In this document: piece by piece, positions 22,855-47,196 of the stretch
Position numbering within the stretch: the first letter of the stretch is position 1
Layout of the letters: every line of letters starts with the position of its first letter
Source: an uncultured Bdellovibrionales bacterium
GTDB taxonomy: Bacteria > Bdellovibrionota > Bdellovibrionia > Bdellovibrionales > JAMPXM01
Assembly (NCBI GenBank): GCA_937927435.1
Contig: CALBDW010000092.1
Span: 7-64,006 of the forward strand
Length of the DNA stretch: 64,000 bases
Direction: 5' to 3'
The notes under the pieces: generated by a model
Told to the model about the DNA's origin: nothing
Databases searched by the model: none
What the model saw: the letters and a program-made list of their open reading frames with translations, nothing else
Position numbers and translations under genes: made by a program

Positions 22855-22882
22855 TCATCCCCACGATTGTGAGCCAGTTTTA
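22855..22882 (-). repeat. singleton arm of the AAACTGGCTCAC-N4-GTGGKGATGA repeat family
   Basis: The plus strand reads TCATCCCCACGATTGTGAGCCAGTTTTA, the reverse complement of TAAAACTGGCTCAC-AATC-GTGGGGATGA. It ends 7 nt from the stop of the minus-strand gene 22890-24101. Confidence 0.85.
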
Positions 22883-22889
22883 GCGTGAA

Positions 22890-24101
22890 TTACGCGTCGA
22901 TGGCACCTGGGTTCTTCGCCAAATCTCGCGTGATGTTTTTCTGGTGCGCTTCGAGAGTTCCACCGCCGATTTCAAGCAGCTTCGCGTCCCGCCACAAACG
23001 CTCGACCACGTATTCGCCGACGTAACCGTAGCCACCGAGAACTTGGATGGCGCGATCGGCGATATTTTTGGCTGCCGTCGTCGAAACGAGTTTCACGCCG
23101 TCGGAATCCAGACGGTTGCCGGAAGAATGGAGATCCAGGCGGCGGGCCGTATCGTAAACGTAAGTACGGCACGCGCGGTATTCGGCGTAGCTTTCAGCGA
23201 TATGGCGCTGGATTTGGCCGAAGTGCGAGATCGGCTTACCAAAGGCGTGGCGCTCGTTCGCGTAACGATTCATCACTTCCAGCGAGCGGCGGGCGATGCC
23301 AAGAGCCATAGCGGCCAGAGTCAGGCGTTCGATCTCGAGGTTGCGCATCATATGGTGGACGGACTCTCCGAGCTCACCGATGAGGTTTGATTTCGGAACG
23401 CGGCAATTTGTGAAGACAAGCTCCGCTGTGTTGGAGGCGCGCATTCCGGTTTTATCTTTGATTTTTTGGCCGACTTCGTAACCCGGCATCCCTTTTTCGA
23501 TGAGGAATGTCGAAATTTGCGGTTTGCCGTTTTTCTCGCCGGTTTTTGCGTACAACCAAACGTAGTCGGCTGGCGTGCCTTCGTCGTCGAGGCAGCCGTT
23601 CGTGATCCACATTTTGCGGCCGTTTATAACGAATCCGTCGCCAGCGGCTTCGGCCGTCGTTTCAAGGCCCAAAACGTCGGTACCGACATTCGGTTCGGAC
23701 ATCGCCATGCAGCCTATTTTTTCGCCGCTGCAGACGCCCGGCAAAATGCGCCGTTTTTGTTCCTCGCTACCGTTAACGGCGAGGTTGTTCACGAAAAGCA
23801 TGCTGTGCGCAAGATAAGCCAAGCAGAAGCCGGGGTCGGAGGATGAGATTTCCTCGTGGACGATCACGGCGGCCACGGCGTCTTGACCGGCTCCGCCGTA
23901 CTCTTCGGGGACGGTGATGCCGAGAAGGCCGAGTTCACCGAGCTTCCTGAAAAGAGGAAGGTTGAAAACCTCGCGGCGGTCATGTTCCAGAGCTTGCGGC
24001 TCGACTTCGGACTGGACGAACTCCCTCACGGTTTCACGAATCATCTTATGTTCGGGGGTGGGATTAAAAAGGTCGAAGTTCCGCCAACTCGATTCGCTCA
24101 T
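22890..24101 (-). CDS. acyl-CoA dehydrogenase (isovaleryl-CoA dehydrogenase-like)
   Basis: 403 aa. CMAMSEPNVGTDV, WITNG and C-terminal EIGGGTLEAHQKNITRDL motifs of the ACAD family. Confidence 0.9.
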   Translation of the reverse strand: MSESSWRNFDLFNPTPEHKMIRETVREFVQSEVEPQALEHDRREVFNLPLFRKLGELGLLGITVPEEYGGAGQDAVAAVIVHEEISSSDPGFCLAYLAHSMLFVNNLAVNGSEEQKRRILPGVCSGEKIGCMAMSEPNVGTDVLGLETTAEAAGDGFVINGRKMWITNGCLDDEGTPADYVWLYAKTGEKNGKPQISTFLIEKGMPGYEVGQKIKDKTGMRASNTAELVFTNCRVPKSNLIGELGESVHHMMRNLEIERLTLAAMALGIARRSLEVMNRYANERHAFGKPISHFGQIQRHIAESYAEYRACRTYVYDTARRLDLHSSGNRLDSDGVKLVSTTAAKNIADRAIQVLGGYGYVGEYVVERLWRDAKLLEIGGGTLEAHQKNITRDLAKNPGAIDA

Positions 24102-24348
24102 TTTTCACTCCTTGGATCACTGTTCCCTTTCCTTAACTAGACCCCGCGCCCATGTCACGGCTTCTTTTGCGGATCCACCAGGCAAGCGTTTGACTTCCGG
24201 TGAAACCGTACCTCTAAAATGATGGGAAGCGCATTGCAAAAGCCGCCATTCCCTCAACATTTCCAATTTTTTTCAAATCGAGGCATGGTTCAGGCCCGAA
24301 AGTCACGGTGGGTCGACGGGTTTTGTCATGCGCGCTGAGGGAGCAGCC

Positions 24349-25557
24349 ATGGAGCAAAAAGCGGACGTTGTCATCGTTGGCGGAGGATTGGCCGGCTCGC
24401 TGACCGCATTGCGACTCGCGACCGCGCACCCGCAAATGCGTGTTGTGCTCGTTGAAAAAGGGGACCAGTTAGGTGGACGTCGCACGTGGAGCTTTTTCGA
24501 AGCTGAATTGGGAAGCGACGAAACGATGAAGTGGCTTGAGCCCGTGATCGACCGCAGCTGGGATGGGGTTTCGGTGAAATTCCCCAAACTCGAGAAAGAT
24601 GTTACCCGCAGGTTTCACGCGATCCGCTCAGAAACTCTCCATAAAAAGGTTCTCGAATTGCTCGGCGATGGCGTTGTTTTGCACGCCGAAGTGTCGCGTC
24701 TCACCGAGTCGCACGTCGAACTTGAAAACGGTGATGTTTTTGGGGCGCGTCTCATTCTCGATGCCCGCGGCTTAGACGAGGCGTCAGGTCCTTCCATCAC
24801 CGGTTATCAAAAATTTATCGGTTTGGAATTTGAATTGGCTGAACCGCACGGTTTGACCGCGCCGGTGCTTGTCGATGCGTGTTGCCCGCAACTCGATGGC
24901 TTGCGGTATTTCTCGCTTTTGCCCTGGGATGAGAAGCGGGTTCTCATCGAAGAGACATATTATAGCGACTCGCAAACGGTGAACCGCGAGCGCATCCACC
25001 GTTCGCTCACGGCGTATGCTGAAAGGCGAGACTGGAAGATCGTAAGCGTCAGTCGCGAAGAATGGGACGTTATCCCGATTCCGATGAGCGGCGATTACAT
25101 CAAGCAAAGCATCGGCGGGCAGCCTCTGCCGATCGGTGTGCGCGGTGGTTTCTTTCACGCCGCGACGGGGCGTTCTTTCGCGGAGACCGTCCGGATCGCC
25201 GAGTTTCTTTCTTCGCTCGAAGACCATGCCACCCATTTCGCGCGTCTCCGGCTTGTGAAGTTCAAAAAGCCGTGGATGTCGCGCCAACGCTTTTATCGCT
25301 TGCTCAATCGCTTTATCTTCTTTGCGGCTGAACCGTCTCTGCGTTATCAGGTTCTTCAGCATATCTACGCGCAAAGTCCGGATTTGGTCGTTCGGTTTTT
25401 GAACGGGCGCACGTCGTGGGCCGATCGTATCCGGCTTTTGAGTTCGGGCGTTCCAGTGCCGCGAGAACGGGCTTTGCGTAGCTTGACGGAAGACGCTTTG
25501 CATTCGTGGGCGGCTGCGCGCACGCGAAATGGCGGCGCGGCTGAAAGTCACCTTTAA
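24349..25557 (+). CDS. lycopene cyclase family (CrtY-like) flavoprotein
   Basis: DVVIVGGGLAGSLTALRLA dinucleotide-binding motif. Size (~400 aa) and FLYA/FHAATG-type C-terminal motifs (GGFFHAATGRSF) resemble the CrtY/CrtL family. Start at 24349 (RBS GAGGGA), with 24328 as an alternative. Confidence 0.65.
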   Translation: MEQKADVVIVGGGLAGSLTALRLATAHPQMRVVLVEKGDQLGGRRTWSFFEAELGSDETMKWLEPVIDRSWDGVSVKFPKLEKDVTRRFHAIRSETLHKKVLELLGDGVVLHAEVSRLTESHVELENGDVFGARLILDARGLDEASGPSITGYQKFIGLEFELAEPHGLTAPVLVDACCPQLDGLRYFSLLPWDEKRVLIEETYYSDSQTVNRERIHRSLTAYAERRDWKIVSVSREEWDVIPIPMSGDYIKQSIGGQPLPIGVRGGFFHAATGRSFAETVRIAEFLSSLEDHATHFARLRLVKFKKPWMSRQRFYRLLNRFIFFAAEPSLRYQVLQHIYAQSPDLVVRFLNGRTSWADRIRLLSSGVPVPRERALRSLTEDALHSWAAARTRNGGAAESHL

Positions 25558-25634
25558 AGAGAGACATTCTAAATTCGGCTGGCGGCGATCCCGGTTCAGG
25601 TTCAAGATAAGGACCGCGAGTGGAGGAGGCTTTC

Positions 25635-27002
25635 ATGCGCATTTTGGTCACGGGGGCCACGGGATTGATCGGTAAGGAACTCGGAAAACGCCTTGTCTCA
25701 AACGGCCATGAGTTGGTCGTCGTCTCGCGCAATCCGAAGAAAGCCGAATTCGAGGTGCCGTATCCGGCCAGGTTTTTTGCGTGGAAGGGGGAGAGCGAAG
25801 CGTTTCCGATCGAGGCGCTGAAAGACGTTGACGTCATTGTGAACCTCGCTGGCGAACCTATCGCTCCTGGGCGATGGACGGCCGAAAAGAAGAAACGCAT
25901 ACGTGATTCTCGGGTTCTTGGAACAAGGAGGATCGTCGAGGCGCTGGCCCGGCTTGATTTCCGTCCGCGCGCGCTTGTTCAAGCATCCGCGATCGGTATT
26001 TACGGCGACCGTGATGATGATGTTCTCACGGAACAATCGGCGGAGGGCGAGGGGTTTCTTGCCGACGTCGTCAAGGATTGGGAAGCGGAAGCTCGTGCGG
26101 TTGAAAAACTCGGTCTGCGACTTGCGATCGTCCGTACCGCGATGGTGCTCTCCACCCGCGGGGGAGCATTGGCCAGGCTCTTGCCCCTTTTCGAAAAGGG
26201 CGTCGGCGGCCAGTTCGCGAGCGGTCTTCAGTGGATGAGTTGGATTCACATCGAAGACATTGTGCGCGTTTACACGTATTGTGTGGAGTACGAATCGGCG
26301 CGCGGTGTTTTCAACGCCTCGGCCCCTGAACCAGTACGCAACGACCGGTTTTCTCTTCTGTTAGCACGTGCTCTTGGACGTGCGCCTTTTCTTCCGGTGC
26401 CGGATACCGCGTTAAAGCTCGCTCTGGGAGAGGCTGCGACGACGGTCTTGTGGAGCCAGCGCGTGCTCCCAAACCGCTTAACGGAACTGGGGTTTCAGTT
26501 TCGGTATTGGGAACTGGAGGCGGCGCTTCGGGAACTCTGCGGTCCATTCAGAGACGGTTGGCGGCAATCCGTCATCGAACAATGGGTCGCGAGGAAACCG
26601 GACGAACTCTTCGCGTTTTTCACCGATGAACGGAATTTGGAGAAGCTCACCCCTCCGTCCTTTGGTCTTCATGTGATCGGGAAATCGTCACCTGAGCTGA
26701 AAGAAGGAGCTGAGGTTGATTTCCGTTACAAGCTTTACGGTTTTCCCATGATCGCCCAAGTCAAGATCCGCGAGTGGGAGCCGGGGCGGCGTTTTGTCGA
26801 CGAGCAAATAAAGGGGCCTTTTAAGGCCTGGATTCACGCGCATGAGTTTTGGCCTCTGGCCGGGGGAACCCTTTTGCGTGATCGGGTCCGTTATCGAGTG
26901 CCAGCGGGCTGGTTGGGCGACGTCCTGGCCGGCTGGAAGGTTGAAAACGAGTTGAAGTCGTTTTTCGAGTTTCGCCGTAAGCGAATCAATGAGATATTCT
27001 GA
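25635..27002 (+). CDS. fusion of YfcH-type (TIGR01777/DUF1731) SDR epimerase-like domain and C-terminal SRPBCC domain
   Basis: MRILVTGATGLIGKELGKRL Rossmann N-terminus. WMSWIHIEDIV is typical of YfcH. The last ~150 aa (..VARKPDELFAFFTDERNLEKLTPP..IREWEPGRRFVDEQIKGPFKAWIHAHEF..) resemble an SRPBCC/START-like ligand-binding fold. Confidence 0.65.
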   Translation: MRILVTGATGLIGKELGKRLVSNGHELVVVSRNPKKAEFEVPYPARFFAWKGESEAFPIEALKDVDVIVNLAGEPIAPGRWTAEKKKRIRDSRVLGTRRIVEALARLDFRPRALVQASAIGIYGDRDDDVLTEQSAEGEGFLADVVKDWEAEARAVEKLGLRLAIVRTAMVLSTRGGALARLLPLFEKGVGGQFASGLQWMSWIHIEDIVRVYTYCVEYESARGVFNASAPEPVRNDRFSLLLARALGRAPFLPVPDTALKLALGEAATTVLWSQRVLPNRLTELGFQFRYWELEAALRELCGPFRDGWRQSVIEQWVARKPDELFAFFTDERNLEKLTPPSFGLHVIGKSSPELKEGAEVDFRYKLYGFPMIAQVKIREWEPGRRFVDEQIKGPFKAWIHAHEFWPLAGGTLLRDRVRYRVPAGWLGDVLAGWKVENELKSFFEFRRKRINEIF

Positions 27003-27037
27003 CGCTCCAAAAGAGAAGACTGAGGAAAGAGGCGTCA

Positions 27038-27760
27038 GTGTATTCCATACGTTTTCCCCACAGCGGGCAGTTCGAATACGCGGACCGGAGGCTTTCGGCC
27101 CGCGAAATTTTGGAGTTGGTGGAACCCTATCTGACTCCCGAGAGGCGGGAGCGTATCCGCCGCGTCGTTGAGAGCCGTACGTGTGACGTGGTCCCGGTTC
27201 TCGAGAACATCTACGATCGCGGCAATATCAGCGCCGTTTTAAGAAGCGCGGAAGCTATGGGCTTCCAGTGCGCCCACGTCATTGAGCTGGGGGAAAAATT
27301 TAAGAGCGCCAACCGAGTGACCCAAGGCGCCGACAAATGGCTGGATGTGCGTCGCTGGCGCTCGACCCGCGATTGCATTACGGAACTAAAGCGCCAAGGC
27401 TTTAAGATCGTCGCGACCCATCTCGATCAAAAGGCGAAACCCATTTCCTCAATCGATTTTCTCGGGCCTGTGGCCGTCGTTTTCGGGAACGAGAAGGACG
27501 GCATTTCGCAGGAGATGGTGGAGCTGGCCGATGAAACGATGATCATCCCCATGGCCGGTTTCGTTCAAAGTTTCAACATCTCGGTCGCCGCGGCCATTTC
27601 GTTCTATCACATCTACCTCGAGCGGCAGAGGGCCCACGGCCACGTCGGAAACTTAAGCGAAGAAGAAAAATTGGTCTTGCGCGCCGATTTCTGCCTGCGT
27701 TCGAGCGATAATCCGGACCGTTTGATTCGCGAACTTTTGGAAAGACAACTGAAGGCTTAA
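27038..27760 (+). CDS. trmH: SpoU-family tRNA (Gm18) 2'-O-methyltransferase-like
   Basis: 240 aa. VLENIYDRGNISAVLRSAEAMG, VVFGNEKDGIS and IPMAGFVQSFNISVAAAI (SPOUT motifs). Confidence 0.75.
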   Translation: MYSIRFPHSGQFEYADRRLSAREILELVEPYLTPERRERIRRVVESRTCDVVPVLENIYDRGNISAVLRSAEAMGFQCAHVIELGEKFKSANRVTQGADKWLDVRRWRSTRDCITELKRQGFKIVATHLDQKAKPISSIDFLGPVAVVFGNEKDGISQEMVELADETMIIPMAGFVQSFNISVAAAISFYHIYLERQRAHGHVGNLSEEEKLVLRADFCLRSSDNPDRLIRELLERQLKA

Positions 27761-28365
27761 AGCTGGCTTGAAACGCCGGCTTGGTTTTCAAGATCGCTGA
27801 TGCGAATGATGTTTTGCGTTCTTCGGTTGCGCAGCTGCTCGATTTGAGCGCGAATCGCCTGTGAAGACGAATTCTGGGAAAGCAAACGCGAGAGACTCCG
27901 GATGCGGGCTTCGAGGTTTTCGTTTTCGATTTCCAACTCGCGGATTTTTTGGCCCACGCGGTAACTGGTGAGGAATTGGGGCTCAAGATGGGTGGGGCAG
28001 ACGTTCTTGTAAGCATCGCCCTTTCTTCCTGCCTCAAGCCCGCTTTGGGGGGAGCAGTACTCCACTAAGCCCGCGTCGCGACCGTTCATGTACATATCTT
28101 CGTTCAGGTCGCTCAGTTCGCCCGAACAAACGAGTTTGTGTTCTTCGATTTTGCTGGGCTTAGCTCCACTGAGTCCGTCGAGCCGCCCGACTTCATACCA
28201 ATCCATGTGGGAGCACGGCAGTGGTCGGGAGCCTGAAAGTGACGGAGGAGTGAGATGCGTGCAGGCGGCCATGAGTCCCAGAGCTGCCAATGAGGTCAAC
28301 GAGAACAAGGAGATTCGTTTCTTTTTAAAGCTCTGTTTTTTGAGACTCTTCGCTGTGGCCCGCAT
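27757..28365 (-). CDS. DUF2799-like lipoprotein with C-terminal coiled coil
   Basis: Start taken at MRATAKSLKK.. with lipobox LMAAC. Repeated W/Y..G..DG..G...C and YC.P..G...G motifs. C-terminal heptad-like ELEIENENLEARIRSL. Confidence 0.55.
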   Translation of the reverse strand: MRATAKSLKKQSFKKKRISLFSLTSLAALGLMAACTHLTPPSLSGSRPLPCSHMDWYEVGRLDGLSGAKPSKIEEHKLVCSGELSDLNEDMYMNGRDAGLVEYCSPQSGLEAGRKGDAYKNVCPTHLEPQFLTSYRVGQKIRELEIENENLEARIRSLSRLLSQNSSSQAIRAQIEQLRNRRTQNIIRISDLENQAGVSSQL

Positions 28366-28552
28366 GTTTCCAAGGTAAGAGTGCCGAGTGGGAAGATTCA
28401 AGCTGAAGACGGTTTTAGCAGAGATTTCAGGCGTGCCGAACACGAGTCCGGGACTCTTCTTCATGGTGGCGTGACTGACTCGAGGAGCTATATGCGACGA
28501 GGGGCTGCGGAAGGCGCGCAATCGTTGCATTTAAGCGATTTCTCGGGCAATT

Positions 28553-30625: not shown

Positions 30626-31087
30626 ATGTCGCGCAAGAAAGCTAAGCCGGGAATCAATCGCAAAGCCGCGATGGTTGCGACTTCGGATGTCGAGAAGAAG
30701 TACGGAACAGTTGCGATCGAACAAAACAAGCTCGAGCGCTTTGAAAACCGCACGCAAGTGCGCCGCTACACGATCGAGTTCACATGTCCGGAGTTCACGT
30801 GCCTGTGCCCGCGCAGTGGCTTCCCGGATTTCGCGACCATTCGGATCAAATACGTTCCGGATAAGTATTGCGTGGAACTCAAATCGTTGAAGCTTTACAT
30901 CAACAGCTTCCGCGACAAGCACGTCTTCCACGAGGACGTGACGAACATCATCTTGCAGGACCTGGTCGACCTCTTGGATCCTTGGGAAATCACGGTCGTT
31001 GGCGATTTCAATGTGCGCGGTAACATTCATACCGTCGTGACCGCGACTCACACGAAAGAGAAACAGGGGCGTTCGAAACGCGCATGA
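30626..31087 (+). CDS. queF: NADPH-dependent 7-cyano-7-deazaguanine reductase (type I QueF)
   Basis: 153 aa. EFTCLCPRSGFPDFATIRIKYVPDKYCVELKSLKLYINSFRDKHVFHE (QueF motif plus catalytic Cys). The stop TGA at 31085-31087 overlaps the first bases of a repeat arm. Confidence 0.9.
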   Translation: MSRKKAKPGINRKAAMVATSDVEKKYGTVAIEQNKLERFENRTQVRRYTIEFTCPEFTCLCPRSGFPDFATIRIKYVPDKYCVELKSLKLYINSFRDKHVFHEDVTNIILQDLVDLLDPWEITVVGDFNVRGNIHTVVTATHTKEKQGRSKRA

Positions 31088-31180
31088 ACTGGCTCACTTC
31101 CGTGGTGACGGTGCTAACTAGTCGAATTAACTGGATTTTTATGGCTATTGAGATGTCACCACGATTGTGAGCCAGTTTTA
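31086..31180. repeat. 95-bp head-to-head doublet of the repeat family, between convergent genes
   Basis: GAACTGGCTCAC-TTCC-GTGGTGACG (31086-31110), then a 45-bp unique centre, then TCACCAC-GATT-GTGAGCCAGTTTTA (31156-31180). The arms are reverse complements of each other. The queF stop and the minus-strand gene stop (complement of 31178-31180) both lie in the arms. Confidence 0.9.
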
Positions 31181-32785: not shown

Positions 32786-32798
32786 GGCTTCGGAATTC

Positions 32799-33338: not shown

Positions 33339-33378
33339 GCGTGCTCTTTTATCTTTCCCGATGTCCGACCGTCAAGAT

Positions 33379-33397
33379 GCGAATGATTTTCAATTTC
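33379..33397 (-). promoter_or_regulatory. candidate Fur box upstream of fur
   Basis: GCGAATGATTTTCAATTTC matches GATAATGATAATCATTATC at 13/19 positions. Lies 41-59 nt upstream of the fur start codon. Confidence 0.3.
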
Positions 33398-33450
33398 AGA
33401 CTTAGGTGAGGTCAGATAATTCGGTAAGTATTGGAAATATCTAAGTTTTT

Positions 33451-33544
33451 AAACTTGCTCACGAGCGTGGTGGTCGTGTTAGGCCTTCGGAAGTTCCTCG
33501 CTCTCGGTTCTTGAAGCGTGGCACCAATAAAGTGATCCAGTTTG
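33451..33544. repeat. 94-bp head-to-head doublet of the repeat family (diverged copy)
   Basis: AAACTTGCTCAC-GAGC-GTGGTGGTCG (33451-33476), then a 44-bp unique centre, then GCACCAA-TAAA-GTGATCCAGTTTG (33521-33544). Lies in the divergent fur / 33755 intergenic region. Confidence 0.75.
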
Positions 33545-37300: not shown

Positions 37301-39172
37301 GTGACATCGAAAATTACGCTACCGAAATCTTTGCTCTGGTTTTTCCTGACCTACCGCTGGCCGGCGAAACTTGCGATTCTCGCGACCGCCTTGATGGCGG
37401 CTGTGTTTGGTGCGGCGGGTCCTTTGTTTCAGAAAATCTTTGTCGACCGGTTGTTGGGGTCCGAGTCGTTTGAGCGCTGGTTTGAGGCTTTGGTGTTCAT
37501 CGATCCGACCGGCGCGATTGCAGCGGCGTTCGTTTGTACGCTGATGGCGCAAGCCCTTTCTTTGGCTGCGAACTACCTCTGCGTGAAAGAGGGAGCGGTT
37601 CTTCAAGAGATCGTTTCGGAAGAGCTTTATAAGAAGATGCTTTCGATTCGCCCAGATTCGATGGGCAAAACGACCATCGGTGAAGTGGTGTCGCTTTATG
37701 CCACAGATGTCCCGGGTGCGAGCGCGATCATTGATCATGTTGGGCCCATGGCGACCAACATCATCTTTAACATGTTGATTGCTCCGCTTGCCGTGGTGAT
37801 GGTGGCGCCGATTCCGTTGGGACCGACATTGGCCGTCATGGGCGTGCTGGTTTGCCTCATCTTCCTCCTTTCAGCAAGGCAGAGCCGTTTTTTCGCTAAG
37901 TACAAGCGGCTCGCGGCCGAGCGGACCGGCATCGTGAACGAATGGATTCAAACGATTCGTCTCTTGCGTATTCTCGGATGGGTCGAGAGCTTCGAGCGGA
38001 AGATCTTTAATAAACGAATTGAGGAAACGAAAAACCGCGTCGGCATGGTTACGAACGGCCAGCTGATGAACGCCTTCGGTACATCCATCAATTTCGTGAT
38101 CAACCTGTTGGCCGTCTCGAGCCTGATTTATCTGAGCGGTGTGAAACCGACCCCGGGGGAACTGCTGGCGCTATTGTGGATATTCGGGATTTACCTAGGT
38201 CGGCCGCTCCGGCAATTGCCATGGTTCTTTACGCACTTCCTCGATGCGGTCACGTCAATGAAAAGGCTCGAGAAGTTTCTTGAGCGTCCCTCTGATGCGG
38301 GTGAGATCGAGGCTCCGAGGAATGATGAGACGCTGAAAGGCGCGTCGTTAAAAGTGCGCGGCTTAAATTTGAGAATCGGCGATCAGGAAATCCTTTCGGA
38401 TGTTAATTTCGACGTGCAGGAAGGTGAATTCGTCGCCGTGGTCGGTGAGGTGGGATCCGGAAAATCGATGCTCGCTCTCTCCTTGGTCGGCGAAACGGGC
38501 GCGACTTTTAGAGAGTTCAAGATCGGCGACGTCGACGCTTTGAAACTCAGTTTGCACGAACGCCGGCGCTATTTCGGTTTTGTCCCGCAAGAAGGCTTCG
38601 TGATGAGCGCTTCGCTCGCGGAAAACATCGTGTTTGAATACGAACCGCAATACGACCACGAAGAAAAAGTGCGGACTTCGCTCAAAGCAGCTCAATTTCA
38701 TCTGGAAAACGAGATTCAGGAAAAATCGGGTATTCGGGCGGAAATCGGCGAACGAGGTGTCAACCTGTCGGGGGGGCAGAGACAGCGTGTGTCTTTGGCT
38801 CGCGTGCACCAGTTCGATCGCCCGATCATGCTTCTTGACGATTGTTTGAGCGCGGTTGACGTCGATACTGAACGCCAGCTTCTTGAAAATCTCTTTAACG
38901 GCGAGTGGAAGAATCGGACGAAAATCCTTGTGACCCATCGTTTGTCGGTTCTTAACGTTGTTGACAGTGTCTTCCTTATGGAAGGCGGAAAGATCGTCGA
39001 TAGCGGGCCGTTTGAAGAGCTCTTGGAGCGTTCGGACCGCATGCGGGAATTTGTGGCGTCGGTTTTGCGCAGCGAAGAGAGGTCGCCTGTCGAGAAGCTT
39101 GAGACGACTGCTGAGCCGATGGATGAGGACTCGGAAGGAGGGGCGGATGTCCAAGCCGAATCGGTTTCTTGA
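37301..39172 (+). CDS. ABC exporter, fused permease/ATPase (type I exporter half-transporter)
   Basis: Six-TM N-terminal domain. Walker A GEVGSGKS, signature LSGGQRQRVSLAR, Walker B MLLDDCLSAVD. Confidence 0.9.
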   Translation: MTSKITLPKSLLWFFLTYRWPAKLAILATALMAAVFGAAGPLFQKIFVDRLLGSESFERWFEALVFIDPTGAIAAAFVCTLMAQALSLAANYLCVKEGAVLQEIVSEELYKKMLSIRPDSMGKTTIGEVVSLYATDVPGASAIIDHVGPMATNIIFNMLIAPLAVVMVAPIPLGPTLAVMGVLVCLIFLLSARQSRFFAKYKRLAAERTGIVNEWIQTIRLLRILGWVESFERKIFNKRIEETKNRVGMVTNGQLMNAFGTSINFVINLLAVSSLIYLSGVKPTPGELLALLWIFGIYLGRPLRQLPWFFTHFLDAVTSMKRLEKFLERPSDAGEIEAPRNDETLKGASLKVRGLNLRIGDQEILSDVNFDVQEGEFVAVVGEVGSGKSMLALSLVGETGATFREFKIGDVDALKLSLHERRRYFGFVPQEGFVMSASLAENIVFEYEPQYDHEEKVRTSLKAAQFHLENEIQEKSGIRAEIGERGVNLSGGQRQRVSLARVHQFDRPIMLLDDCLSAVDVDTERQLLENLFNGEWKNRTKILVTHRLSVLNVVDSVFLMEGGKIVDSGPFEELLERSDRMREFVASVLRSEERSPVEKLETTAEPMDEDSEGGADVQAESVS

Positions 39173-41048
39173 TCACGAGTCTTCGTTCCGCGGTCGCTAT
39201 TCAAAAGAGGTTTTTGAAAGCCTCTACTTCTCATATCGTCCAGTTCTCGTCCGCATCGTTTTTCTGGTTATTTGCGGCTTTTTGGGGAGACTTTTACTTC
39301 TCGCGAATACCAACATCATCGGCATTTGGGTGGACACTTACTGTGCCTCGATGGTCGGCGGCGTGCTCACCCAACAACAGTGCCGGCCGGTTCCGGAGTT
39401 TTTTAGAGGATTTGATAACGCTCAATTTTTAAAACTTTTGGCGCTCATTACGGCTTGCGGGTTTGTATTGACGGCGTTCTTTCGAATCGGTTTCTCGCGC
39501 CTATCCGCGGGTGCCGTGAGCCGTCTTTATGACGAAGTGACCCTTCGGACGTCGAGGCTTCCGATCCGGTTCTTCGACGTAAACCCGGTTGGGAGGGTCG
39601 TCACCCGGTTTTCCAGCGACTACGGCAACGTTTTCCGTCTGTTCGGCGGGCCTTTGGCGGAATTTTTCGCGATCGTTTTCGATCTCATTTGCATGGTGGC
39701 GCTCATCACGGTGGCGAGCCCGTTCTATTTGCCCATCATCGTGGTCATCGGTATCGCCAATTGCGCGGTTTATCGGCTCAACCGCGACAGACTCCGACGC
39801 GAGCGTCGCGAGCTTTCGGCGATTCGCTCGCCCTCGATTGCGCATTTCGCGGAGACTACGCAAGGAGCGAGCACGATTCGCGTGTTTGGGCGGCAGGCAA
39901 CTTTTCTCGGGAGATTCTCGAAGCTGAATTCGAGTTATCTGCGGCAAAGGGTACGCACGAACGTTGAGATCTTGAAGTTCTCTCTTCAGATGGGAACGCT
40001 CACGGCGCTTTTGCTCCTTGCCACCGGATTGATCGGACTTGCACTTGCCCGCCATGGGCTTGTCAGCGTCGGCTCCATCGGTGTCGCGTTTGCGTTCATC
40101 GTTCTTTCGGGCGTGAGCATTCAGATGTTTTTCGAATGGTTTGCGCAGTTCGAAGAGGCGATGACGGGCGTTGAGCGCTTGAACGATTATTTGCGCCGTG
40201 ATTTGGAGCCGGGCGCGAAACTGCCGTCGACAAGGCAGTTCCCGACGCATCACCCGGTTTACATGCCGGCCGAAGAGGAGGAACTCAAACGTCGCCGTCT
40301 CGTCGAGGGTCGAAGCGCGGGCGTACTGATTGAAGACCTTTGGTTCCGTTATTCGCCCGATACTCCGCCGGTCTTAAAGAATGTTTCGTTGTGCATCCGG
40401 CCAGGTGAGAAAATCGGCGTCGTCGGGCGGACCGGAAGCGGCAAAACGAGTCTCGTTCAGGCGTTGCTGTATCTCTATCCGATTGAACGCGGCCGTATCT
40501 TGATCGACGGGCAAGCGCCGGAGGTCGGACAGGAAGGTGAGGACCAAAACCGTGTTGATCTCAATCTGTTCCGGCGTAGTATCGCTTTGATCTCGCAAGA
40601 GCCGACGCTCTTCCGGGGCACTCTCCGCGAAAACCTGGATCTCATGGGGCGCCACGATGACGACCGCTTGATAGATGCCCTGAGAAGAGTCGGGCTACTT
40701 GAGTGGTTTAACGCTTTGCCTGACGGTCTTGAGTCGCAGATCGAAGAGCGGGGCCGTAACCTTTCCAGCGGTGAAAAGCAGCTTCTCTGTATGGCTCGCT
40801 GCCTTTTGCAGGATGCGCCCATCGTCGTGATGGACGAGGCCACGAGTTCGATCGATCCACAGTCGGAAGAAATACTGGTACGGGCGACCGGCGAGTTCTT
40901 TGCCGACCGAACGCAAATCATCATCGCGCACCGGCTTTCGACTTTGACCGATTGTGACCGCGTACTATGGCTTCATAAGGGCGAAGTGCGCATGTTCGAC
41001 AAGCCGGAGAAGGTGTTGCCGGTGTTTCAAAGGACGCGGCTCGCATAA
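39147..41048 (+). CDS. ABC exporter, fused permease/ATPase (probable heterodimer partner)
   Basis: Start at the ATG at 39147 (RBS GGAGGGG), overlapping the upstream gene by 26 nt. Walker A GRTGSGKTS, signature LSSGEKQLLCMAR, Walker B VVMDEATSSID. The stop TAA at 41046-41048 overlaps a repeat arm. Confidence 0.9.
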   Translation: MSKPNRFLDHESSFRGRYSKEVFESLYFSYRPVLVRIVFLVICGFLGRLLLLANTNIIGIWVDTYCASMVGGVLTQQQCRPVPEFFRGFDNAQFLKLLALITACGFVLTAFFRIGFSRLSAGAVSRLYDEVTLRTSRLPIRFFDVNPVGRVVTRFSSDYGNVFRLFGGPLAEFFAIVFDLICMVALITVASPFYLPIIVVIGIANCAVYRLNRDRLRRERRELSAIRSPSIAHFAETTQGASTIRVFGRQATFLGRFSKLNSSYLRQRVRTNVEILKFSLQMGTLTALLLLATGLIGLALARHGLVSVGSIGVAFAFIVLSGVSIQMFFEWFAQFEEAMTGVERLNDYLRRDLEPGAKLPSTRQFPTHHPVYMPAEEEELKRRRLVEGRSAGVLIEDLWFRYSPDTPPVLKNVSLCIRPGEKIGVVGRTGSGKTSLVQALLYLYPIERGRILIDGQAPEVGQEGEDQNRVDLNLFRRSIALISQEPTLFRGTLRENLDLMGRHDDDRLIDALRRVGLLEWFNALPDGLESQIEERGRNLSSGEKQLLCMARCLLQDAPIVVMDEATSSIDPQSEEILVRATGEFFADRTQIIIAHRLSTLTDCDRVLWLHKGEVRMFDKPEKVLPVFQRTRLA

Positions 41049-41702
41049 ACTGGCTCACTATTGTGGTGATGAAATGTCAAAACGCTTAAGCGGGCGTAGG
41101 ATAACTACTGCCCAGAGGAAGACAAATCGTTGAAGTCGAAGGGGCGGAAGGCTCGCTCATTAAAAAACCGCTAATAGCAGAGAGGAAACGGCAGTTACGC
41201 GGTTTTCTTTTCCAAAGACTCGTTATGAGACTGCATATAGACCGCAAGATGCGCCGCCAGGAATTCAGCGGCTTCGATTCTAAGAGTACTTCCATTTTCT
41301 TTCGGACTTGAGCAGCAAGAAAGAGAAGCTTTCGTGCGACGGTAGTGCGGCTGATATTGAGGAGAATCGTCGCTCTTCGCTGAGAAACTCCGGATGAGAG
41401 GAGCTTTCTTAAAGGCTCGTTCTTATGTCTCTTCTTTTGCTTATAACTAGGATGCAGGATCGCATAGGAGAATCCTCTCCGGCAGCGCAAACAGTGAAGC
41501 CGCTGCACGATACGCGCATCCGACTTTCGACGGTATCGACCGTTGCGTACTCCTTACGGCCGGGAGTTGGATGTCGATAGATGTCTTATGCAATAGGGAC
41601 AGTCGGGCAGCACCCGCAGGTCCAAAAGCAAGAGTCTGGCCAGCTTTTCCCTCATCGTTTACGAATCGCCTCAACTTATCCCCACGAAAGTGGGCCAGTT
41701 TG
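41047..41702. mobile_element. 656-bp unit bounded by the repeat-family arms and carrying a decayed zinc-ribbon/HTH gene (IS-like, probably a deletion derivative)
   Basis: Left arm AAACTGGCTCAC-TATT-GTGGTGATGA (41047-41072). Right arm CTTATCCCCAC-GAAA-GTGGGCCAGTTTG (41675-41702) is its imperfect reverse complement. One minus-strand gene fills the interior. Confidence 0.7.
41086..41655 (-). pseudogene. IS1-InsA-like zinc-ribbon + HTH protein gene with in-frame TAA; no DDE domain present
   Basis: Own translation: MREKLARLLLLDLRVLPDCPYCIRHLSTSNSRP*GVRNGRYRRKSDARIVQRLHCLRCRRGFSY...LLSSGVSQRRATILLNISRTTVARKL. This has the same architecture as IS1 InsA (CPxC..VRNG..QRxxCxxCR, then NGVxxRxxARIxxxxxxTxxRxL). 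The TAA is the complement of 41554-41556. Confidence 0.6.
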
Positions 41703-41818
41703 CTCTACTAAAGTCGAGGCAATACGCCTCGAAGTCCACTCTGCGCCGCAAAAATCAAAGAATACATTTTCAATTGATCCCGTTTACGCAGTACGCTCGA
41801 CCGGTGAGGGGGATTCTT

Positions 41819-43444
41819 ATGAAAATAAGGCTAGTTAGCTGGATTTTGTTCTTTAGCTTTTGTGCGATCCTGTCGTTCAACCGTGGTTTCGCTTTCGAAC
41901 GGATCCCGGGCGAATACATCGTTAAATACAAGGACAACCCTGTCATCGCCATTGCTTCTATGCGGTCGATTCCAGGCGTAATGGTTCTTTCTCACAACGA
42001 GTTCGGCCGGCTCTTGAAAGTACGTGTGAACCTCGAGGACGAGATCACAGTGCTCGACAAAATCTATAACGACCCGAATGTCGAGTACGTGGTTGCGAAC
42101 GCGAAAGTGAAGTCGTTCCTTTATTCATCCGCTGAAACGCGCGCGAATCTCCGCGAACAATGGGCTCTTACGAAAGTCCGCGCGAGAGAGGCATGGCAAC
42201 GGGCCGGTAACCGAGGCAATAAAAACATCGTTGTTGCGGTGATCGATACGGGCGTTGACTCGAATCATGAGAGCCTTCGTCCTAACATGATCGCCGGCTA
42301 TAACTTCAAAGATAACACACCGGATGCCAGCGATAAGACGAGCCCGTTCGGTAACCCCGGGCACGGCACGCACTGCGCGGGTGTTGTAGGGGCGACCGGT
42401 TTGATCGACGGTGGTGTTATCGGAATCAGCCCTGACATCTCGATCATGCCGCTAAAGTTCCTCGACGAAAGAGGACAAGGTGACCTTTACGGCGGTGTTC
42501 GCGCGATCGACTACGCGATCGAAAAAGGTGCTCACATTATTTCGGCAAGCTGGGGAGCGACGATGAGTCGTCAGCAAGCGATGCCCATCATTGAAGCTGT
42601 CAAGCGGGCAGACGATGCAGGCATTCCGTTCATTGCGGCTGCTGCCAATGATGGTCGCAATAACGATACGACTGAGGTTTATCCGACCAACGCCGGTTTG
42701 CCGAACATGATTTCCGTGGCGGCTAGCGGGCCGAATGACGAAAAACCGTCGTGGTCGAACTACGGTAGAAAGAATGTGCACCTCGCTGCTCCCGGCGTTG
42801 ATATCATGAGCACGCTGCCGGGTAATAAGTATGGTAATCTTTCCGGCACGTCGATGGCGACTCCGCTCGTCTCCGGTCTGGTTGCTTTCTTGAAAGCTCA
42901 AGATCCGTCGCTCACGGGAGCCGAAGCTCGCGCGCTCCTGCAGCTGACGGGCGCGAAAGCTCAAGTGACGACCGCATGCAACTGCCGTGTCGACGCTTAT
43001 GCGGCCGTTGACGCGCTCTTAAGCAAGAAGATGTTCATCGTTCCGGCCGCGGCCACGATCAAGCCGGGTGAGACCTTGCAGTTCTCGACGAAGTTCGGTG
43101 TTGCGCCGTTTACTTTTAGCGTTTCCAATCCCTCGGTTGGAAGTATCACGAACGACGGTCTCTTCACGGCTTCCGGTGTCGGCACGACGACCGTTACGGT
43201 TCGGGACTCAAGCGGACAAGTCTCGACCTCGCTTGATATCAATGTCGCCAACGACGGTGGTAGCGGCGGTGGCGGCGGTGGTGGCGGTGGCGGTGGTGGC
43301 GGCGGCGGCGGCTTCCCGTTCCCCTTCCCGCCGGGTGACGGTGGCGGCGGCGGTGGCGGAGGAGGCGAATGTCCGCTTGGCGATCAGCAGCTTTGCGATA
43401 TCCTCTGCCAAATTTCGCCGAATCTACCGATCTGTAATAAGTAA
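41819..43444 (+). CDS. secreted subtilisin-like S8 serine peptidase with Ig-like domain, poly-Gly tracts and Cys-rich tail
   Basis: Start at the ATG at 41819 (RBS GAGGGGG) with signal peptide MKIRLVSWILFFSFCAILSF. Catalytic triad contexts VAVIDTGVD, HGTHCAG and SGTSMATP. Big_2-like segment IKPGETLQFS..VTVRDSSGQ. Then G18, FPFPFPPGD, G10 and ECPLGDQQLCDILCQISPNLPICNK. Confidence 0.85.
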   Translation: MKIRLVSWILFFSFCAILSFNRGFAFERIPGEYIVKYKDNPVIAIASMRSIPGVMVLSHNEFGRLLKVRVNLEDEITVLDKIYNDPNVEYVVANAKVKSFLYSSAETRANLREQWALTKVRAREAWQRAGNRGNKNIVVAVIDTGVDSNHESLRPNMIAGYNFKDNTPDASDKTSPFGNPGHGTHCAGVVGATGLIDGGVIGISPDISIMPLKFLDERGQGDLYGGVRAIDYAIEKGAHIISASWGATMSRQQAMPIIEAVKRADDAGIPFIAAAANDGRNNDTTEVYPTNAGLPNMISVAASGPNDEKPSWSNYGRKNVHLAAPGVDIMSTLPGNKYGNLSGTSMATPLVSGLVAFLKAQDPSLTGAEARALLQLTGAKAQVTTACNCRVDAYAAVDALLSKKMFIVPAAATIKPGETLQFSTKFGVAPFTFSVSNPSVGSITNDGLFTASGVGTTTVTVRDSSGQVSTSLDINVANDGGSGGGGGGGGGGGGGGGGFPFPFPPGDGGGGGGGGGECPLGDQQLCDILCQISPNLPICNK

Positions 43445-43465
43445 GGTACCGTTCCTACGGCCCCA

Positions 43466-43503
43466 AAAGCTCGGGAGGTTTCTCCCGGGCTTTTTTATTT
43501 TTA
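43466..43503 (+). terminator. intrinsic terminator after the S8 peptidase gene
   Basis: AAAGCTCGGGAG-GTTT-CTCCCGGGCTTT stem-loop followed by TTTTTTATTTTT. Confidence 0.7.
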
Positions 43504-43530
43504 ACTGGCTTACTGTCGTGGTGATGGGAA
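43501..43530 (+). repeat. singleton arm of the repeat family
   Basis: TTAACTGGCTTAC-TGTC-GTGGTGATGGGAA. Its complement encodes the last 7 codons and the stop (..CFPSPRQ*) of the minus-strand gene. Confidence 0.8.
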
Positions 43531-44183
43531 GCAGTCGGGGGCATACATATAGCTGTGATAAGCCTTCCAAAACGAATCCGCGCACGGCCCCATTATCGAT
43601 CCCGTATCATCGTGACATAAATCGTGATCGAAGCATTCTTGGGTATACTGGTTCTTGCGCCATTGCATGAATTGATAACACCCGACTCCGCAACGGCCTC
43701 GGCAGCGCGTGGGCGGATCGCCGACGATTGATGATGAAATGACCGGCTGTCCGTCCACGAAATAAGTTCCGGTGTGGTGTTGGCCGATCAACTGACAGAT
43801 CATCGTGTATTTATTGTTTCGGTCGCGGAGCAGAGTTTTCTCGGTCACTTCATCGAACTCGGGAACGGCTTCGTTAGGCTCGACGAAGTTCGCAATGAAA
43901 TCGAGAAGGATAAATGTCCGTGGATCGAGCGAATCGTTTCCGGAGTTTGAGAGGGTGTCGCGAACAACGTTTTGATCATCTTCACTAAGGAATGGCGGTT
44001 AAGTGTCATCGTCACGACGTCGAAGCGTTCTGAGTGAACGCAAATTTCCGCAGTTAAAGATTTTGAGCGCCAATCTGCTCGGCAATTCTTCTCGCTGAAA
44101 AGGGGGCTGTAATCGAGGGCGACTGAGAATCGTGGGAAAAAGAAAAGAGCCAGGATGAAGGCGAATGTCTGCATGGTAGACAT
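43510..44183 (-). pseudogene. secreted Cys-rich protein with phospholipase-A2-like C-x-x-H-D-x-C motif, frameshifted
   Basis: ORF 43845-44183 (signal peptide MSTMQTFAFILALFFFPRFSVA...) and ORF 43510-43848 are one gene. The downstream frame is open upstream to 43998 and reads PPFLSEDDQNVVRDTLSNSGNDSLDPRTFILLDFIANFVEPNEAVPEFDEV... Adding one G to the GG at 43997-43998 joins them (..TMTLNPPFLSEDD..). C-terminal motif: CRGRCGVGCYQF...ECFDHDLCHDD. Confidence 0.5.
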
Positions 44184-44229
44184 GGTCCCACTATTAGATG
44201 GGTTTGCTTTTAACCGTCAACGGCACCGC

Positions 44230-44328
44230 AAACTGGGCTCACTCTAATGGTGAAAGATTAAAAGGAGCTGAATAGATAGGCATTCCGAAGCCAATTTTTG
44301 TCATCCCCACAATAGTGAGCCAGTTTAA
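44230..44328. repeat. 99-bp head-to-head doublet of the repeat family
   Basis: AAACTGGGCTCAC-TCTA-ATGGTGAAAG (44230-44256, with one extra G), then a 44-bp unique centre, then TCATCCCCAC-AATA-GTGAGCCAGTTTAA (44301-44328). Confidence 0.85.
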
Positions 44329-44488
44329 GGCGCTAACTAAGCTGAGCGGCGCATAAAAAGTGACGAAAATTCGCCGTTTTCAACTGATTTGGATTGTAGA
44401 GACCACAGAGAGCGGCATATAGCTGGGCAAACAGCCAAAATGCACAAGATAGGTACGTTGCATTAATTTTGCAGTCGCTCCAATAGGT

Positions 44489-47113
44489 ATGCGTGTTGTG
44501 CGCCAAATTCGAGCAAGTGTGGCGAAATTTTTCCAGTATTCCCAGTACCGGAAGCTTTTCGGTTTCTTAGGTGCTGGCGTAGTGGCTTCCGGTTTACTGG
44601 CGGCGTGCGGCTCGTTCTTTGACGACCGTTCTCAACCTAAAGTCGCCCGGCTGGATGAAACTTCCCTTTCGTGCATGAAAGAGGTGCCGAATTCCATCGA
44701 GAATTGGACCCAGGGGCACGTCACGGATGATATCGGCGCGTCGATCGATTGTTTAACGGCAGCATTCGACAAGTTTCTTACGCGTGTCCGTGGTGAAGGA
44801 GAAGAGGGGTGGCACGCGGAAGAGATCGCTCAGTTCATTTCCGGCGAGTTTGATCTCGCTCCCGAGGAGCTTCAGGAAAAAGTAAATGCCGCTTTGACGT
44901 TGAAGCAGGTCCTGTTTGGTGGACGTGAGACGACGTTGAAGCGCGCCGAGGTGGTTTACTTGCGCGAGCTGCTGCGCAAGTTGAAGCCGTGGCTTGCGGA
45001 ATTGGCGCCGCTGATGCCCGTCATCACTTTGAAAGCTGAGTACGGGACCATTGTGGAAGCCGAAGAAGCGGCTCGTCTCCTCAACATTGTAGCGAATGAG
45101 CTCGCGGCGCAAATCAAACTTAGTCGCTCGTTCATCGGCGTGAGCTTGGTCGAAAAAGCCCCGGCTGAGTATTCGTTTGAAAAGATCGCCGATGCGTTGG
45201 CTGTTTTCGGGGTCGATCGTGACATTCTCGATTCCTGGCTGCCTCTTGCCAAGAGCGCCAAGGTTATCCTTGCTGGAGGAGAGCCTGATCGTATTGAGCG
45301 TTCGCGCTTGCCTCGGTTGGTTTTGGCGGGCGGCGAAGTTTGGGGAATCTTTCTCCGTGCCCGCTACGGTTTAATCGAGAGCGATGACCTGTTCGGCCGG
45401 GATCTCGAGGCGCTGGCGGCGGCGGTATACGACGGGCTCGAGGAGCTTGGGCGCTCCATTCAAGCCCAATCCCCAGAGCCGATCATTCGTGTTGAGAAAT
45501 TGGAAGCACTCATTGAGGCTCTTGGTGACAAAGGTCTCATTCCGCTTGGCTTGAAAGCTTCGACGGTTAAGGGGCTATTACCGGCTGTTTTGACCAAGTT
45601 CCTCCATGGGAATTGGAACCCAGACCGCGAGCTTAAGAAGCAGGGATTTGATTTTGATCACTTGAATAAGCTCCGCCTCGCTTTCGACGACTGGCTTGAA
45701 GGACAGCGGTCCCTCAACCGGGTTTATGAAAACCGGCCGGATGCGACCTCGGGATTCGACGCTTTTTCTCGGGCATGGCACGAGGAAACCGCCGATCCGG
45801 CCGTCGCGAATCGCCGTTTCCGCATCGAGCTGAGTGAGCTTCTTTCGAACGCGTATGCGTTCACTACCGATGAGGAATTGCGTCCGTTTATCTTCAAGAA
45901 TTCAATCTACGCGGGGGTCAAGAAGAGCGACCTGGACCGATTGAATATCGCGCGCGCGATCGGGGGATTGATCATTTACGGTTATCCTTACGACAGTGGG
46001 GCGGCGAGAAGCGCAGCAGGTCTTACGGAGCGTGAGGTCGTCGAATTCGTTCTCGATATCCGCCAACTCGGTATCGACCTCGGCATCACAGACGTCCGCA
46101 GCATGAAGGCCGGGCCTCGTACCTATATGGAAGCGAGCCTCTTCACGTCGCTCGCGAAAGGGCAGGACAAAGTCGGGTTACATCAAGCGGTGGAGTGGTT
46201 CGCGATCGCGTATGGATCTCAGCAGGCGTCGACCCGCTATTATCAGTCTCTACTGGGCGAATGCGGTACCGGTCAATATGACAGCCTCGGTCGCGAAAAA
46301 CTTGTTCCGTCTTGCTTCCGAAAGGCGTTCGTTCGTGACTTTGATCGAATCTTCGCGAATCTTCCGGATTTTCTCGCTTGGGTTCATTCGACGGGCGATA
46401 GGCAGATGCCCGAAAAACTGCTGGAGCAGATCGAGCTCGCGACGCGTTCAGATGGGATATCGGAAAGACCTCTTGAGCCCGCTGATGCGCTTTCGATGTT
46501 CCCTGTTGTTCACTACGCGGAAAATCTTGTGCGGGTGCATGACCGCGATGGCAACGGCATTCTCGATGAGAAAGAGGTGAACGATTACTTCCCGATTATC
46601 GCGCCGTTTATCCGTCTCATGGCGAACGGTAAAGCCGAGAGCGTGAGTACGCAGAAGCAGATTTATCAGTACATACTCAATCATGGGGAACCGCCGGATC
46701 CCTCGTCGTGGTGGACCTTCATTCAGATCGGCTGGGATAAGATCAAGAACCAATTCCAGAAAAAAGAGGCTACCCGATACGACATTCTACGGATTATCGC
46801 AGGTTTGAACTCGTACGGCCGTCGTGTCCGTTACCAAAATATCCGCCAATATTTCGACGCGAATATTCTGACCCTGGAAAAATCAATGGCGGCAGGCAAA
46901 AGAGATGTCGCAGAGAAATTGACCGATCTTTTCCAATGCTTGCCGGAAGCGGTCAACGACTTCGCGGACTTAATGAAACGGAATGTCCGTTACATTATGG
47001 CGCGGCAGAAATTGGGCCATGCCAACTACATCACGGCCGACATGTTCACAAAGAGGATTCAAACTCTGCTGGCGAACGATCCGAGGTTCGCGGCTCGTTG
47101 CTTACCTTTCTAA
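44489..47113 (+). CDS. 874-aa lipoprotein of unknown function with one canonical EF-hand loop
   Basis: Lipobox LLAAC. EF-hand DRDGNGILDEKE (D-x-D-x-N-G-x-L-x-x-x-E). No other family recognised. The stop TAA at 47111-47113 overlaps a degenerate repeat arm. Confidence 0.6.
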   Translation: MRVVRQIRASVAKFFQYSQYRKLFGFLGAGVVASGLLAACGSFFDDRSQPKVARLDETSLSCMKEVPNSIENWTQGHVTDDIGASIDCLTAAFDKFLTRVRGEGEEGWHAEEIAQFISGEFDLAPEELQEKVNAALTLKQVLFGGRETTLKRAEVVYLRELLRKLKPWLAELAPLMPVITLKAEYGTIVEAEEAARLLNIVANELAAQIKLSRSFIGVSLVEKAPAEYSFEKIADALAVFGVDRDILDSWLPLAKSAKVILAGGEPDRIERSRLPRLVLAGGEVWGIFLRARYGLIESDDLFGRDLEALAAAVYDGLEELGRSIQAQSPEPIIRVEKLEALIEALGDKGLIPLGLKASTVKGLLPAVLTKFLHGNWNPDRELKKQGFDFDHLNKLRLAFDDWLEGQRSLNRVYENRPDATSGFDAFSRAWHEETADPAVANRRFRIELSELLSNAYAFTTDEELRPFIFKNSIYAGVKKSDLDRLNIARAIGGLIIYGYPYDSGAARSAAGLTEREVVEFVLDIRQLGIDLGITDVRSMKAGPRTYMEASLFTSLAKGQDKVGLHQAVEWFAIAYGSQQASTRYYQSLLGECGTGQYDSLGREKLVPSCFRKAFVRDFDRIFANLPDFLAWVHSTGDRQMPEKLLEQIELATRSDGISERPLEPADALSMFPVVHYAENLVRVHDRDGNGILDEKEVNDYFPIIAPFIRLMANGKAESVSTQKQIYQYILNHGEPPDPSSWWTFIQIGWDKIKNQFQKKEATRYDILRIIAGLNSYGRRVRYQNIRQYFDANILTLEKSMAAGKRDVAEKLTDLFQCLPEAVNDFADLMKRNVRYIMARQKLGHANYITADMFTKRIQTLLANDPRFAARCLPF

Positions 47114-47196
47114 AACGGGCTCATGAGATTGAGGAGGGCTGAAACCGCAGCCGTTTCAGCCCATCCGCGCCATCACCACGGAAGTGAGCCAGTTCG
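47111..47196. repeat. 86-bp doublet of the repeat family with degenerate left arm and internal hairpin
   Basis: The left arm TAAAACGGGCTCAT-GAGA-TTGAGGAGGG (47111-47138) matches 12/14 positions in the first block and 5/10 in the second. The right arm is CATCACCAC-GGAA-GTGAGCCAGTTCG (47171-47196). The centre holds a perfect 10-bp stem, GGGCTGAAAC/GTTTCAGCCC (47136-47162). Confidence 0.6.

Follow-up and report, generated by a model that had tools for sequence, protein, structure and literature searches.

What are the short inverted repeats that recur between the genes of an uncultured Bdellovibrionales bacterium, and what has spread them? The stretch of DNA analysed here (64 kb of contig CALBDW010000092.1, referred to as the window) is ordinary chromosome of about 55% GC, in which an initial annotation had noticed a dispersed family of inverted-repeat arms and had likened it to repetitive extragenic palindromic (REP) elements or recombination sites. 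In this study, we show that the family is real. We propose, with a probability of about 0.9, that an IS1-like insertion sequence (IS) of 1.04-1.14 kb, which is common in Bdellovibrionota, has the arms as its terminal inverted repeats of ~27 bp (YAAACTGGCTCAC-N4-GTGGKGATGA), and that the window holds decayed non-autonomous copies of this IS, most of them transposable elements of the miniature inverted-repeat type (MITEs).

The arm motif, searched as AAACTGGCTCAC-N4-GTGGKGATGA, gave 8 matches at ≤3 mismatches in the window and 0 across 100 dinucleotide shuffles of it, a shuffled-sequence control which had been suggested together with the first description. Eleven matches were obtained at ≤6 mismatches, and a twelfth arm, at 44230 (AAACTGGGCTCAC…), carries a 1-nt insertion and was seen by reading the sequence. 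Forward arms start at 31086, 33451, 41047, 43502, 44230 and 47113, reverse arms end at 22880, 31178, 33543, 41701, 44326 and 47195, and in the doublets the arms face each other without exception. All twelve arms of the initial annotation are present, with coordinates off by at most 1-2 nt, and each of its twelve N4 strings is correct. The N4 block had been taken as four freely varying positions; it is instead set by the side of the arm and by the subfamily. The left arm type reads (A/T)ATC followed by GTGGGGATGA, the right arm type TT(C/T)(A/C) followed by GTGGTGATGG, and both the N4 variation and the G/T ambiguity of the motif are best read from the alignment as signatures of arm side and subfamily. 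Rfam gave no gathering-level match over the 64-kb window (one chance sub-threshold match had E = 0.09), and the searchable literature held nothing relevant on the arm motif or on Bdellovibrio IS and MITEs generally. For these two sources the remark that the motif was not recognised from any described family is borne out.

No parent element had been recognised at first. Arm-bounded long units are, however, found outside the window, at L072:42-1181 (1140 bp) and L074:5838-6956 (1119 bp). Each contains an open reading frame (ORF) of 310 amino acids (aa), and the two units are 98.8% identical over 994 bp. Their 26-nt ends are common to the 93-97-bp elements, in which the left arm type corresponds to the left end of the IS and the right arm type to its right end. 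Three shorter arm-bounded units, of 582, 375 and 167 bp, are derived from the IS by internal deletion. The match between MITEs and IS comprises the left-type and right-type ends plus about 10-20 subterminal bases at the right end. When the 95-bp MITE was compared with the sequenced IS copies by blastn, only the arms matched and the remainder of the interior was unmatched. Four homologues of the transposase (58-79% identity), on five contigs from three other assemblies and one source sample, are each bounded by inverted repeats starting AAACTGG, in elements of 1040-1102 bp. The AAACTGG ends thus appear, from these contigs, to travel with the transposase gene, and an autonomous IS with the same ends and a predicted DDE-type transposase is at hand. 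As a separate observation, the inner block GGTGATG of the right-type arm (e.g. 41065-41071) repeats exactly the 7 nt at the tip of the left end of E. coli IS1 (GGTGATGCTGCC…) and is placed here 17 nt inside the tip; this could be due to chance or be what remains of a binding motif once shared.

The transposase of the parent IS is encoded by a single ORF of 290-310 aa without a frameshift. Its N-terminus carries a CxxC…CxxC zinc finger followed by a helix-turn-helix (HTH), resembling InsA of IS1. The best NCBIfam family of the 310-aa protein is NF033558 'IS1 family transposase' (E = 5e-12, 46 bits), which is matched by 34/34 aligned homologues with E-values from 1e-12 to 4e-18. Against InsAB' of E. 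coli, whose IS1 sequence was checked against annotated plasmids before the comparison, hhalign aligned the zinc finger and the HTH with a probability of 83% (E = 9e-6, 84 columns); outside this N-terminal domain it gave no significant alignment. An AlphaFold model (predicted local distance difference test 81, predicted template modelling score 0.75) shows the topology β1-β3/α/β4/α/β5/α, and Foldseek related it to the ISCth4 transposase, retroviral integrases, TnsB, MuA and Mos1. On this model the catalytic domain is predicted to have an RNase-H (DDE-type) fold. Invariant residues in the homologue alignment include C56, C59, D138, D139, D217, E250, N263, H264 and R270, and C20 and C23 are nearly invariant (≥90%). 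From the alignment the third catalytic position appears to be N263, with R270 seven residues after it; the invariant E250, which lies in a low-confidence loop, is an alternative.

A word-indexed search for this protein returned 4,970 matches, and an exhaustive search 2,050 clusters at E ≤ 1e-3 and 497 at ≤ 1e-30. Named family members are annotated 'transposase' and come from metagenome-assembled genomes (MAGs) of Bdellovibrionota and Bdellovibrionales, with several copies per MAG. Homologues were found on Bdellovibrionota-type contigs only, and none in the plasmid and phage collections.

How far the short elements have spread was seen in two scans. Among species-representative genomes 24 loci were returned, 22 of which are single chance matches; true doublets occur in one Bdellovibrionales MAG only, F1-80-MAGs081 (L006, L023). 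The metagenome scan yielded 78 stretches, mostly from a few samples (ERZ777003, Ga0207864/74/67, NICF), and in two of these sample sets the contigs also encode genes of the window with identical protein products. About 60 loci of the same population carry arms, mostly as doublets of 93-97 bp. Many metagenome arm matches lie 30-50 nt from contig ends, as expected, because repeats break assemblies. Of 56 doublets tabulated, the majority measure 93-97 bp and have alignable interiors, and 30 distinct copies of 83-97 bp were aligned, 5 copies of this kind being present in the window. The interior of ~43 bp is conserved, with a central A-run and CTTAG beside one arm, and at least two subfamilies can be told apart. 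The initial annotation had set a MITE reading aside on account of unrelated centres; this was mistaken, as doublets across the population share the ~43-bp interior. Of the traits that define MITEs, these are found: the elements are small, non-coding, multi-copy and dispersed, and their ends are common with an autonomous element. The doublets of F1-80-MAGs081 (L006:6749-6884 and L023:1832-1969, 136-138 bp) have the same arms, TAACTGGCTCAC-TTGN-GTGGGGAT, around longer interiors that differ from those of the 95-bp MITEs, and show no visible duplication; by their sequence they are taken as a distinct lineage of MITEs within the same IS family.

Several MITEs and one full IS (L113) are flanked by flush direct repeats. 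The best rule is a 9-bp duplication immediately outside one extra degenerate terminal base, Y on the left and R on the right. Applied to 44 distinct sites, it gave 9/9 identity at 6 sites, 8/9 at one and 7/9 at one, while in a permuted-flank control ≥7/9 occurred in 0.5% of pairings and 9/9 never. The duplicated targets are A/T-rich, and the length is 9 bp at every site with a duplication. In a MITE at L029:4000-4140 the 9-bp target AAATCCGCT lies within a local tandem, gaaatccgct-taaatccgct, so that this insertion entered a short pre-existing repeat.

A profile was built from 26 MITE copies elsewhere, leaving out the window's own copies, and for the five MITE copies of the window, the truncated one included, only the interior was shuffled 200 times and rescored. 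Over the whole 64 kb the family profile found no copy beyond the following seven, which are four MITEs, one MITE lacking an arm, one solo end and one 655-bp derivative, all of them decayed and non-autonomous:

22799-22880, minus strand: truncated MITE that retains the family interior and a single terminal inverted repeat (22855-22880) and lacks the other arm.
31086-31178, minus strand: MITE of 93 bp; full-length profile match, E = 4.8e-16.
33451-33543, plus strand: MITE of 93 bp, strongly diverged, its arms at 4 and 6 mismatches; full-length profile match, E = 1.8e-5.
41047-41701, minus strand: 655-bp deletion derivative of the parent IS, with both inverted repeats and a transposase pseudogene at 41198-41604 (minus strand).
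43502-43527, plus strand: solo terminal inverted repeat with 3 mismatches to the motif; profile match to the arm only, E = 0.004.
44230-44326, minus strand: MITE of 97 bp; full-length profile match, E = 3.4e-11.
47113-47195, plus strand: MITE of 83 bp with one degenerate arm and a shortened interior; profile match, E = 7.8e-9.

The copy at 22799-22880, formerly listed as a singleton arm at 22855-22882, is in fact a truncated MITE which has kept its interior. The profile matches at 22808-22879 (model positions 2-73, E = 1.8e-13), and the interior is worth +21 bits over shuffled interiors (0/200 reach the real score). At 31086-31178 the gain is +19 bits (0/200), at 47113-47195 +11.5 bits (0/200) and at 44230-44326 a marginal +6 bits (3/200); the interior at 33451-33543, with +3 bits and 13/200 shuffles reaching the real score, is indistinguishable from shuffles. 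It had been stated that the centres share no similarity. Pairwise they do look unrelated, but the family profile recovers homology at 31086, 22799 and 47113, marginally at 44230 and not at 33451. Because the interiors add bits over shuffled interiors, the window copies are judged by their sequence to be diverged family members rather than arms around unrelated DNA. The 655-bp element had been described as a 656-bp gene-carrying unit. Its gene is a transposase pseudogene: in a tblastn search with the 310-aa transposase, aa 19-130 (64% identity, interrupted by an in-frame stop) run straight into aa 287-310 (83%), so that the zinc finger and HTH are kept and the entire catalytic core is gone. The element matches the IS at 68% over 433 bp by blastn and the NCBIfam IS1 family at E = 7e-4; its profile matches, at 41047 and 41701, are to the arms only.

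Filled and empty orthologous sites, a comparison which the initial annotation had itself put forward, can be set side by side in two relatives (L118 and L120) with about 85% protein identity that are syntenic with the window over 20 kb. Three syntenic sites are empty there. At the junction of the convergent 280-aa and 874-aa genes the two genes overlap by 4 bp (TTAA) in both relatives and are 89 bp apart in the window, where the gap holds the 83-bp MITE. In the spacer between the ABC exporter and the subtilase gene the 655-bp element is absent and the flanks align on either side; the ABC gene terminates as …RLA-TGA in L118 and L120 and as …RLA-TAA here, the AA being supplied by the element tip. 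The divergent promoter region between the DUF8213-like and 874-aa genes contains no counterpart of the MITE at 44230-44326. The remaining sites are less simple. The MITE at 31086-31178, found with identical sequence in three further contigs of the same population, lies between the convergent QueF and RluD-methyltransferase genes, and the stop codons of both overlap its ends. Relatives L115-L117 have no MITE here, but a 107-aa gene fills the spacer (L116:3486-3809; missing in the window at 31088-31177), so this is not a clean empty site. The 3' end of the QueF gene (31040-31087) encodes 7-8 residues more than in close relatives (…THTKEKQGRSKRA as compared to …THTKKK and …THTKD), and its stop is a TGA formed at the boundary of the MITE. 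The MITE at 33451-33543 is located in the divergent region upstream of fur, where synteny with the relatives breaks. The truncated MITE at 22799-22880 adjoins the terminator hairpin of the ribonucleotide reductase gene.

The solo repeat at 43502-43527 is bordered by the subtilase terminator on one side and by the DUF8213-like gene's 3' end on the other. The junction at 43444-43530, compared with L120:14475-15090 and L118:14548-18696, varies: L120 has a GreA-like gene and L118 a 1382-aa gene, and the window has neither. Judged from these sequences, the junction is compatible with an IS-mediated adjacent deletion. The DUF8213-type gene itself (43510-44183, minus strand) consists of two 112-aa ORFs with a frameshift near 43995. 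When the 260-aa protein of L120 was used in tblastn, its aa 18-64 matched in one frame and its aa 104-259 in another, and the gene of the window is probably a pseudogene.

Several observations weigh against the proposed explanation. None of the window copies shows a 9-bp duplication, and among the sites at large target duplication is found at only about one in five. Presence/absence polymorphism within the population was not seen: every overlapping contig has the elements in place, at about 100% identity. For the assignment to IS1 the score of 46 bits is sub-threshold, the curated cut-off being 100. Pfam gave only weak HTH matches for the transposase, with no catalytic-domain family and no PF03400 (DDE_Tnp_IS1). 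The invariant N263 appears to stand opposite the catalytic E of IS1, in a manual alignment and a non-significant segment of the hidden Markov model comparison. Classical IS1 has two ORFs joined by a -1 frameshift and GGnnnTG ends, in contrast to the single ORF found here and to ends that read YAAACTGG… where E. coli IS1 reads GGTGATG…. The missing duplications may reflect age, recombination between copies or intramolecular replicative events, the last of which are known for IS1.

On balance we hold to an IS1-like parent. The likeness comprises the zinc ribbon CxxC…CxxC and HTH alignable to InsA, NF033558 as best profile in 34/34 homologues, a DDE-type fold as predicted and a length of about 1.1 kb. 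The 9-bp duplication and A/T-rich targets agree with properties of IS1 (Iida 1985 and Meyer 1980, as cited in PMC12903888). The short elements resemble bacterial MITEs in being about 95 bp long, non-coding, multi-copy and intergenic, with the repeats of a parent IS, a conserved interior, duplications at some sites and strong hairpin potential; they are unlike them in that sequenced parents account for no more than the ends and about 10-20 subterminal bases and in that most copies are without a recognisable duplication. In the IS1 family target duplications measure 8-9 bp. By analogy with IS1, the transposase would bind each end via its zinc finger and HTH, cut at the element tips and insert by a 9-bp staggered cut, with a preference for A/T-rich DNA near gene ends. 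Copies that retain just the ends, the ~95-bp MITEs and the 167-655-bp deletion derivatives, would be mobilised in trans. The tips of the element read TAAA/TTTA, and for this reason insertion at the extreme 3' end of a gene is tolerated and can provide its stop. The transposition activity of the family is inferred from this analogy; the window copies are old mutated relics.

Is the sequence of each arm conserved, or the pairing between arms? As RNA, the arms of 31086-31178 pair strongly (-42 kcal/mol, z = -8). Among 26 MITEs, arm-to-arm changes were compensated in 0 and uncompensated in 41 cases. At position 21 a G in one arm stands systematically against a T in the other, and the N4 blocks lack complementarity. 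Since there are no matched changes between the arms, conservation seems to act on the sequence of each arm, as for binding by a transposase, and not on pairing. In this respect the view of the initial annotation that only the arms are recognised holds: the arms, not a hairpin, are what is recognised.

A more far-reaching reading of the same data goes beyond an IS1-like parent. The transposase would form a distinct, uncatalogued IS1/IS1595 zinc-finger clade of about 2,000 clusters (50% identity), restricted to Bdellovibrionota, with no Pfam model and with YAAACTGG ends; it may use D-D-N(x6)R in place of D-D-E, and at convergent genes the MITEs might secondarily be stop-codon donors or 3' hairpins. 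We offer this tentatively, as something that may well turn out otherwise. In some groups of the IS1595 family N replaces the third acidic residue, with a basic residue seven positions on, and the duplication is 8 bp. The N-terminal zinc finger and N263…R270 of the Bdellovibrionota transposase resemble this pattern. Unlike IS1595, just 1/34 members match NF033547 (E = 8e-4), Pfam IS1595 domains are absent and the duplication is 9 bp.

Rather doubtful, in our estimate, is a co-option of copies at gene 3' ends by the host, which would retain them because they donate stop codons or form RNA hairpins that act as terminators or stabilise mRNA. The strong RNA pairing speaks in its favour, as do three window copies between convergent genes where they overlap stop codons, and the fixation of the copies in every contig of the population. 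The absence of compensatory changes argues against co-option, and the paired arms are interrupted by an internal loop of 4x4 and, systematically, by a G·A mismatch. The MITEs go unflagged in the terminator scan, two copies are found in promoter regions rather than at gene 3' ends, and the relatives do without the elements. Co-option is moreover compatible with descent from an IS and not an alternative to it.

The gene between the arms also decides against the two mechanisms first considered, being neither a REP-associated tyrosine transposase (RAYT) nor a recombinase. In the first, the arms would be REP hairpins that a RAYT (HUH/Y1) transposase recognises and spreads, and the doublet the replicative unit (REPIN). 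The likeness to REPINs and bacterial interspersed mosaic elements is evident in the inverted doublets in intergenic DNA, in a conserved ~26-nt unit with a small CAC-N4-GTG dyad per arm, and in arms that are better conserved than the interiors. Yet the encoded protein has a predicted DDE fold and IS1-like domains rather than those of a Y1 transposase, and no Y1_Tnp match was found in a Pfam scan of 20 window ORFs at 19-49 kb. The intra-arm dyad is just 3-5 bp, and the arms are not hairpins themselves. Target duplications of 9 bp exist, and to our knowledge REPINs do not make them. This makes REPINs a very improbable source of the family.

The prospects of a site-specific recombinase are equally poor. 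Here the arms would be half-sites (integron attC-like, Xer/pdif-like or of an inverton) around a cassette or invertible switch, which would fit two blocks and a spacer in each arm, varying centres, one gene-carrying unit and AAC…GTT at the tips. The neighbours are housekeeping genes, however, and among the same 20 ORFs there is no integrase or recombinase; the supposed cargo is the transposase pseudogene, the two arm blocks form no dyad, the centres are homologous between copies, and the relatives have simple insertion-type empty sites, with target duplications present in the family. Among single candidates, attC sites were rejected (no GTTRRRY; housekeeping genes), as were Xer/pdif sites (no dyad) and sigma-54 or extracytoplasmic function sigma factor promoters (unsuitable spacing); uptake sequences, an idea from the sequence, were dropped and an operator reading was not supported.

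The genes of the window include class II ribonucleotide reductase, acyl-CoA dehydrogenase, QueF, an RluD-methyltransferase fusion, Fur, ABC exporters and a subtilase; no tRNA genes were found in it. Some further features were observed. Upstream of fur, GTCAAGATGCGAATGATTTTCAATTTCAGA at 33370-33400 is kept in relative L116 amid surrounding DNA that is not conserved, and is probably a Fur box for autoregulation. If its longest ORF is taken, the second ABC exporter (696 aa, TTG start) overlaps the first one by 215 nt (38958-39172); the true start is probably later, because the orthologues have 633 aa. The subtilase C-terminus (43250-43440) has two long poly-glycine runs (about 17 and 11 G) flanking FPFPFPP, followed by a Cys-rich tail. 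The interior of the MITE at 47113-47195 contains, at 47139-47165, a perfect 10-bp GC-rich hairpin, GGGCTGAAAC-N7-GTTTCAGCCC, which is outside the family consensus.

The repeats of this Bdellovibrionales chromosome are ordinary selfish DNA, not a new kind of repeat system. They open no new mechanism, and their chief value lies in annotation. The family accounts for assembly breaks at these repeats in the lineage and for the unusual stop codons and differing C-termini of several genes. With it, many proteins of Bdellovibrionota MAGs that are annotated just 'transposase' acquire a name and ends, and it shows that a lineage of predatory bacteria carries an active-looking IS/MITE family.

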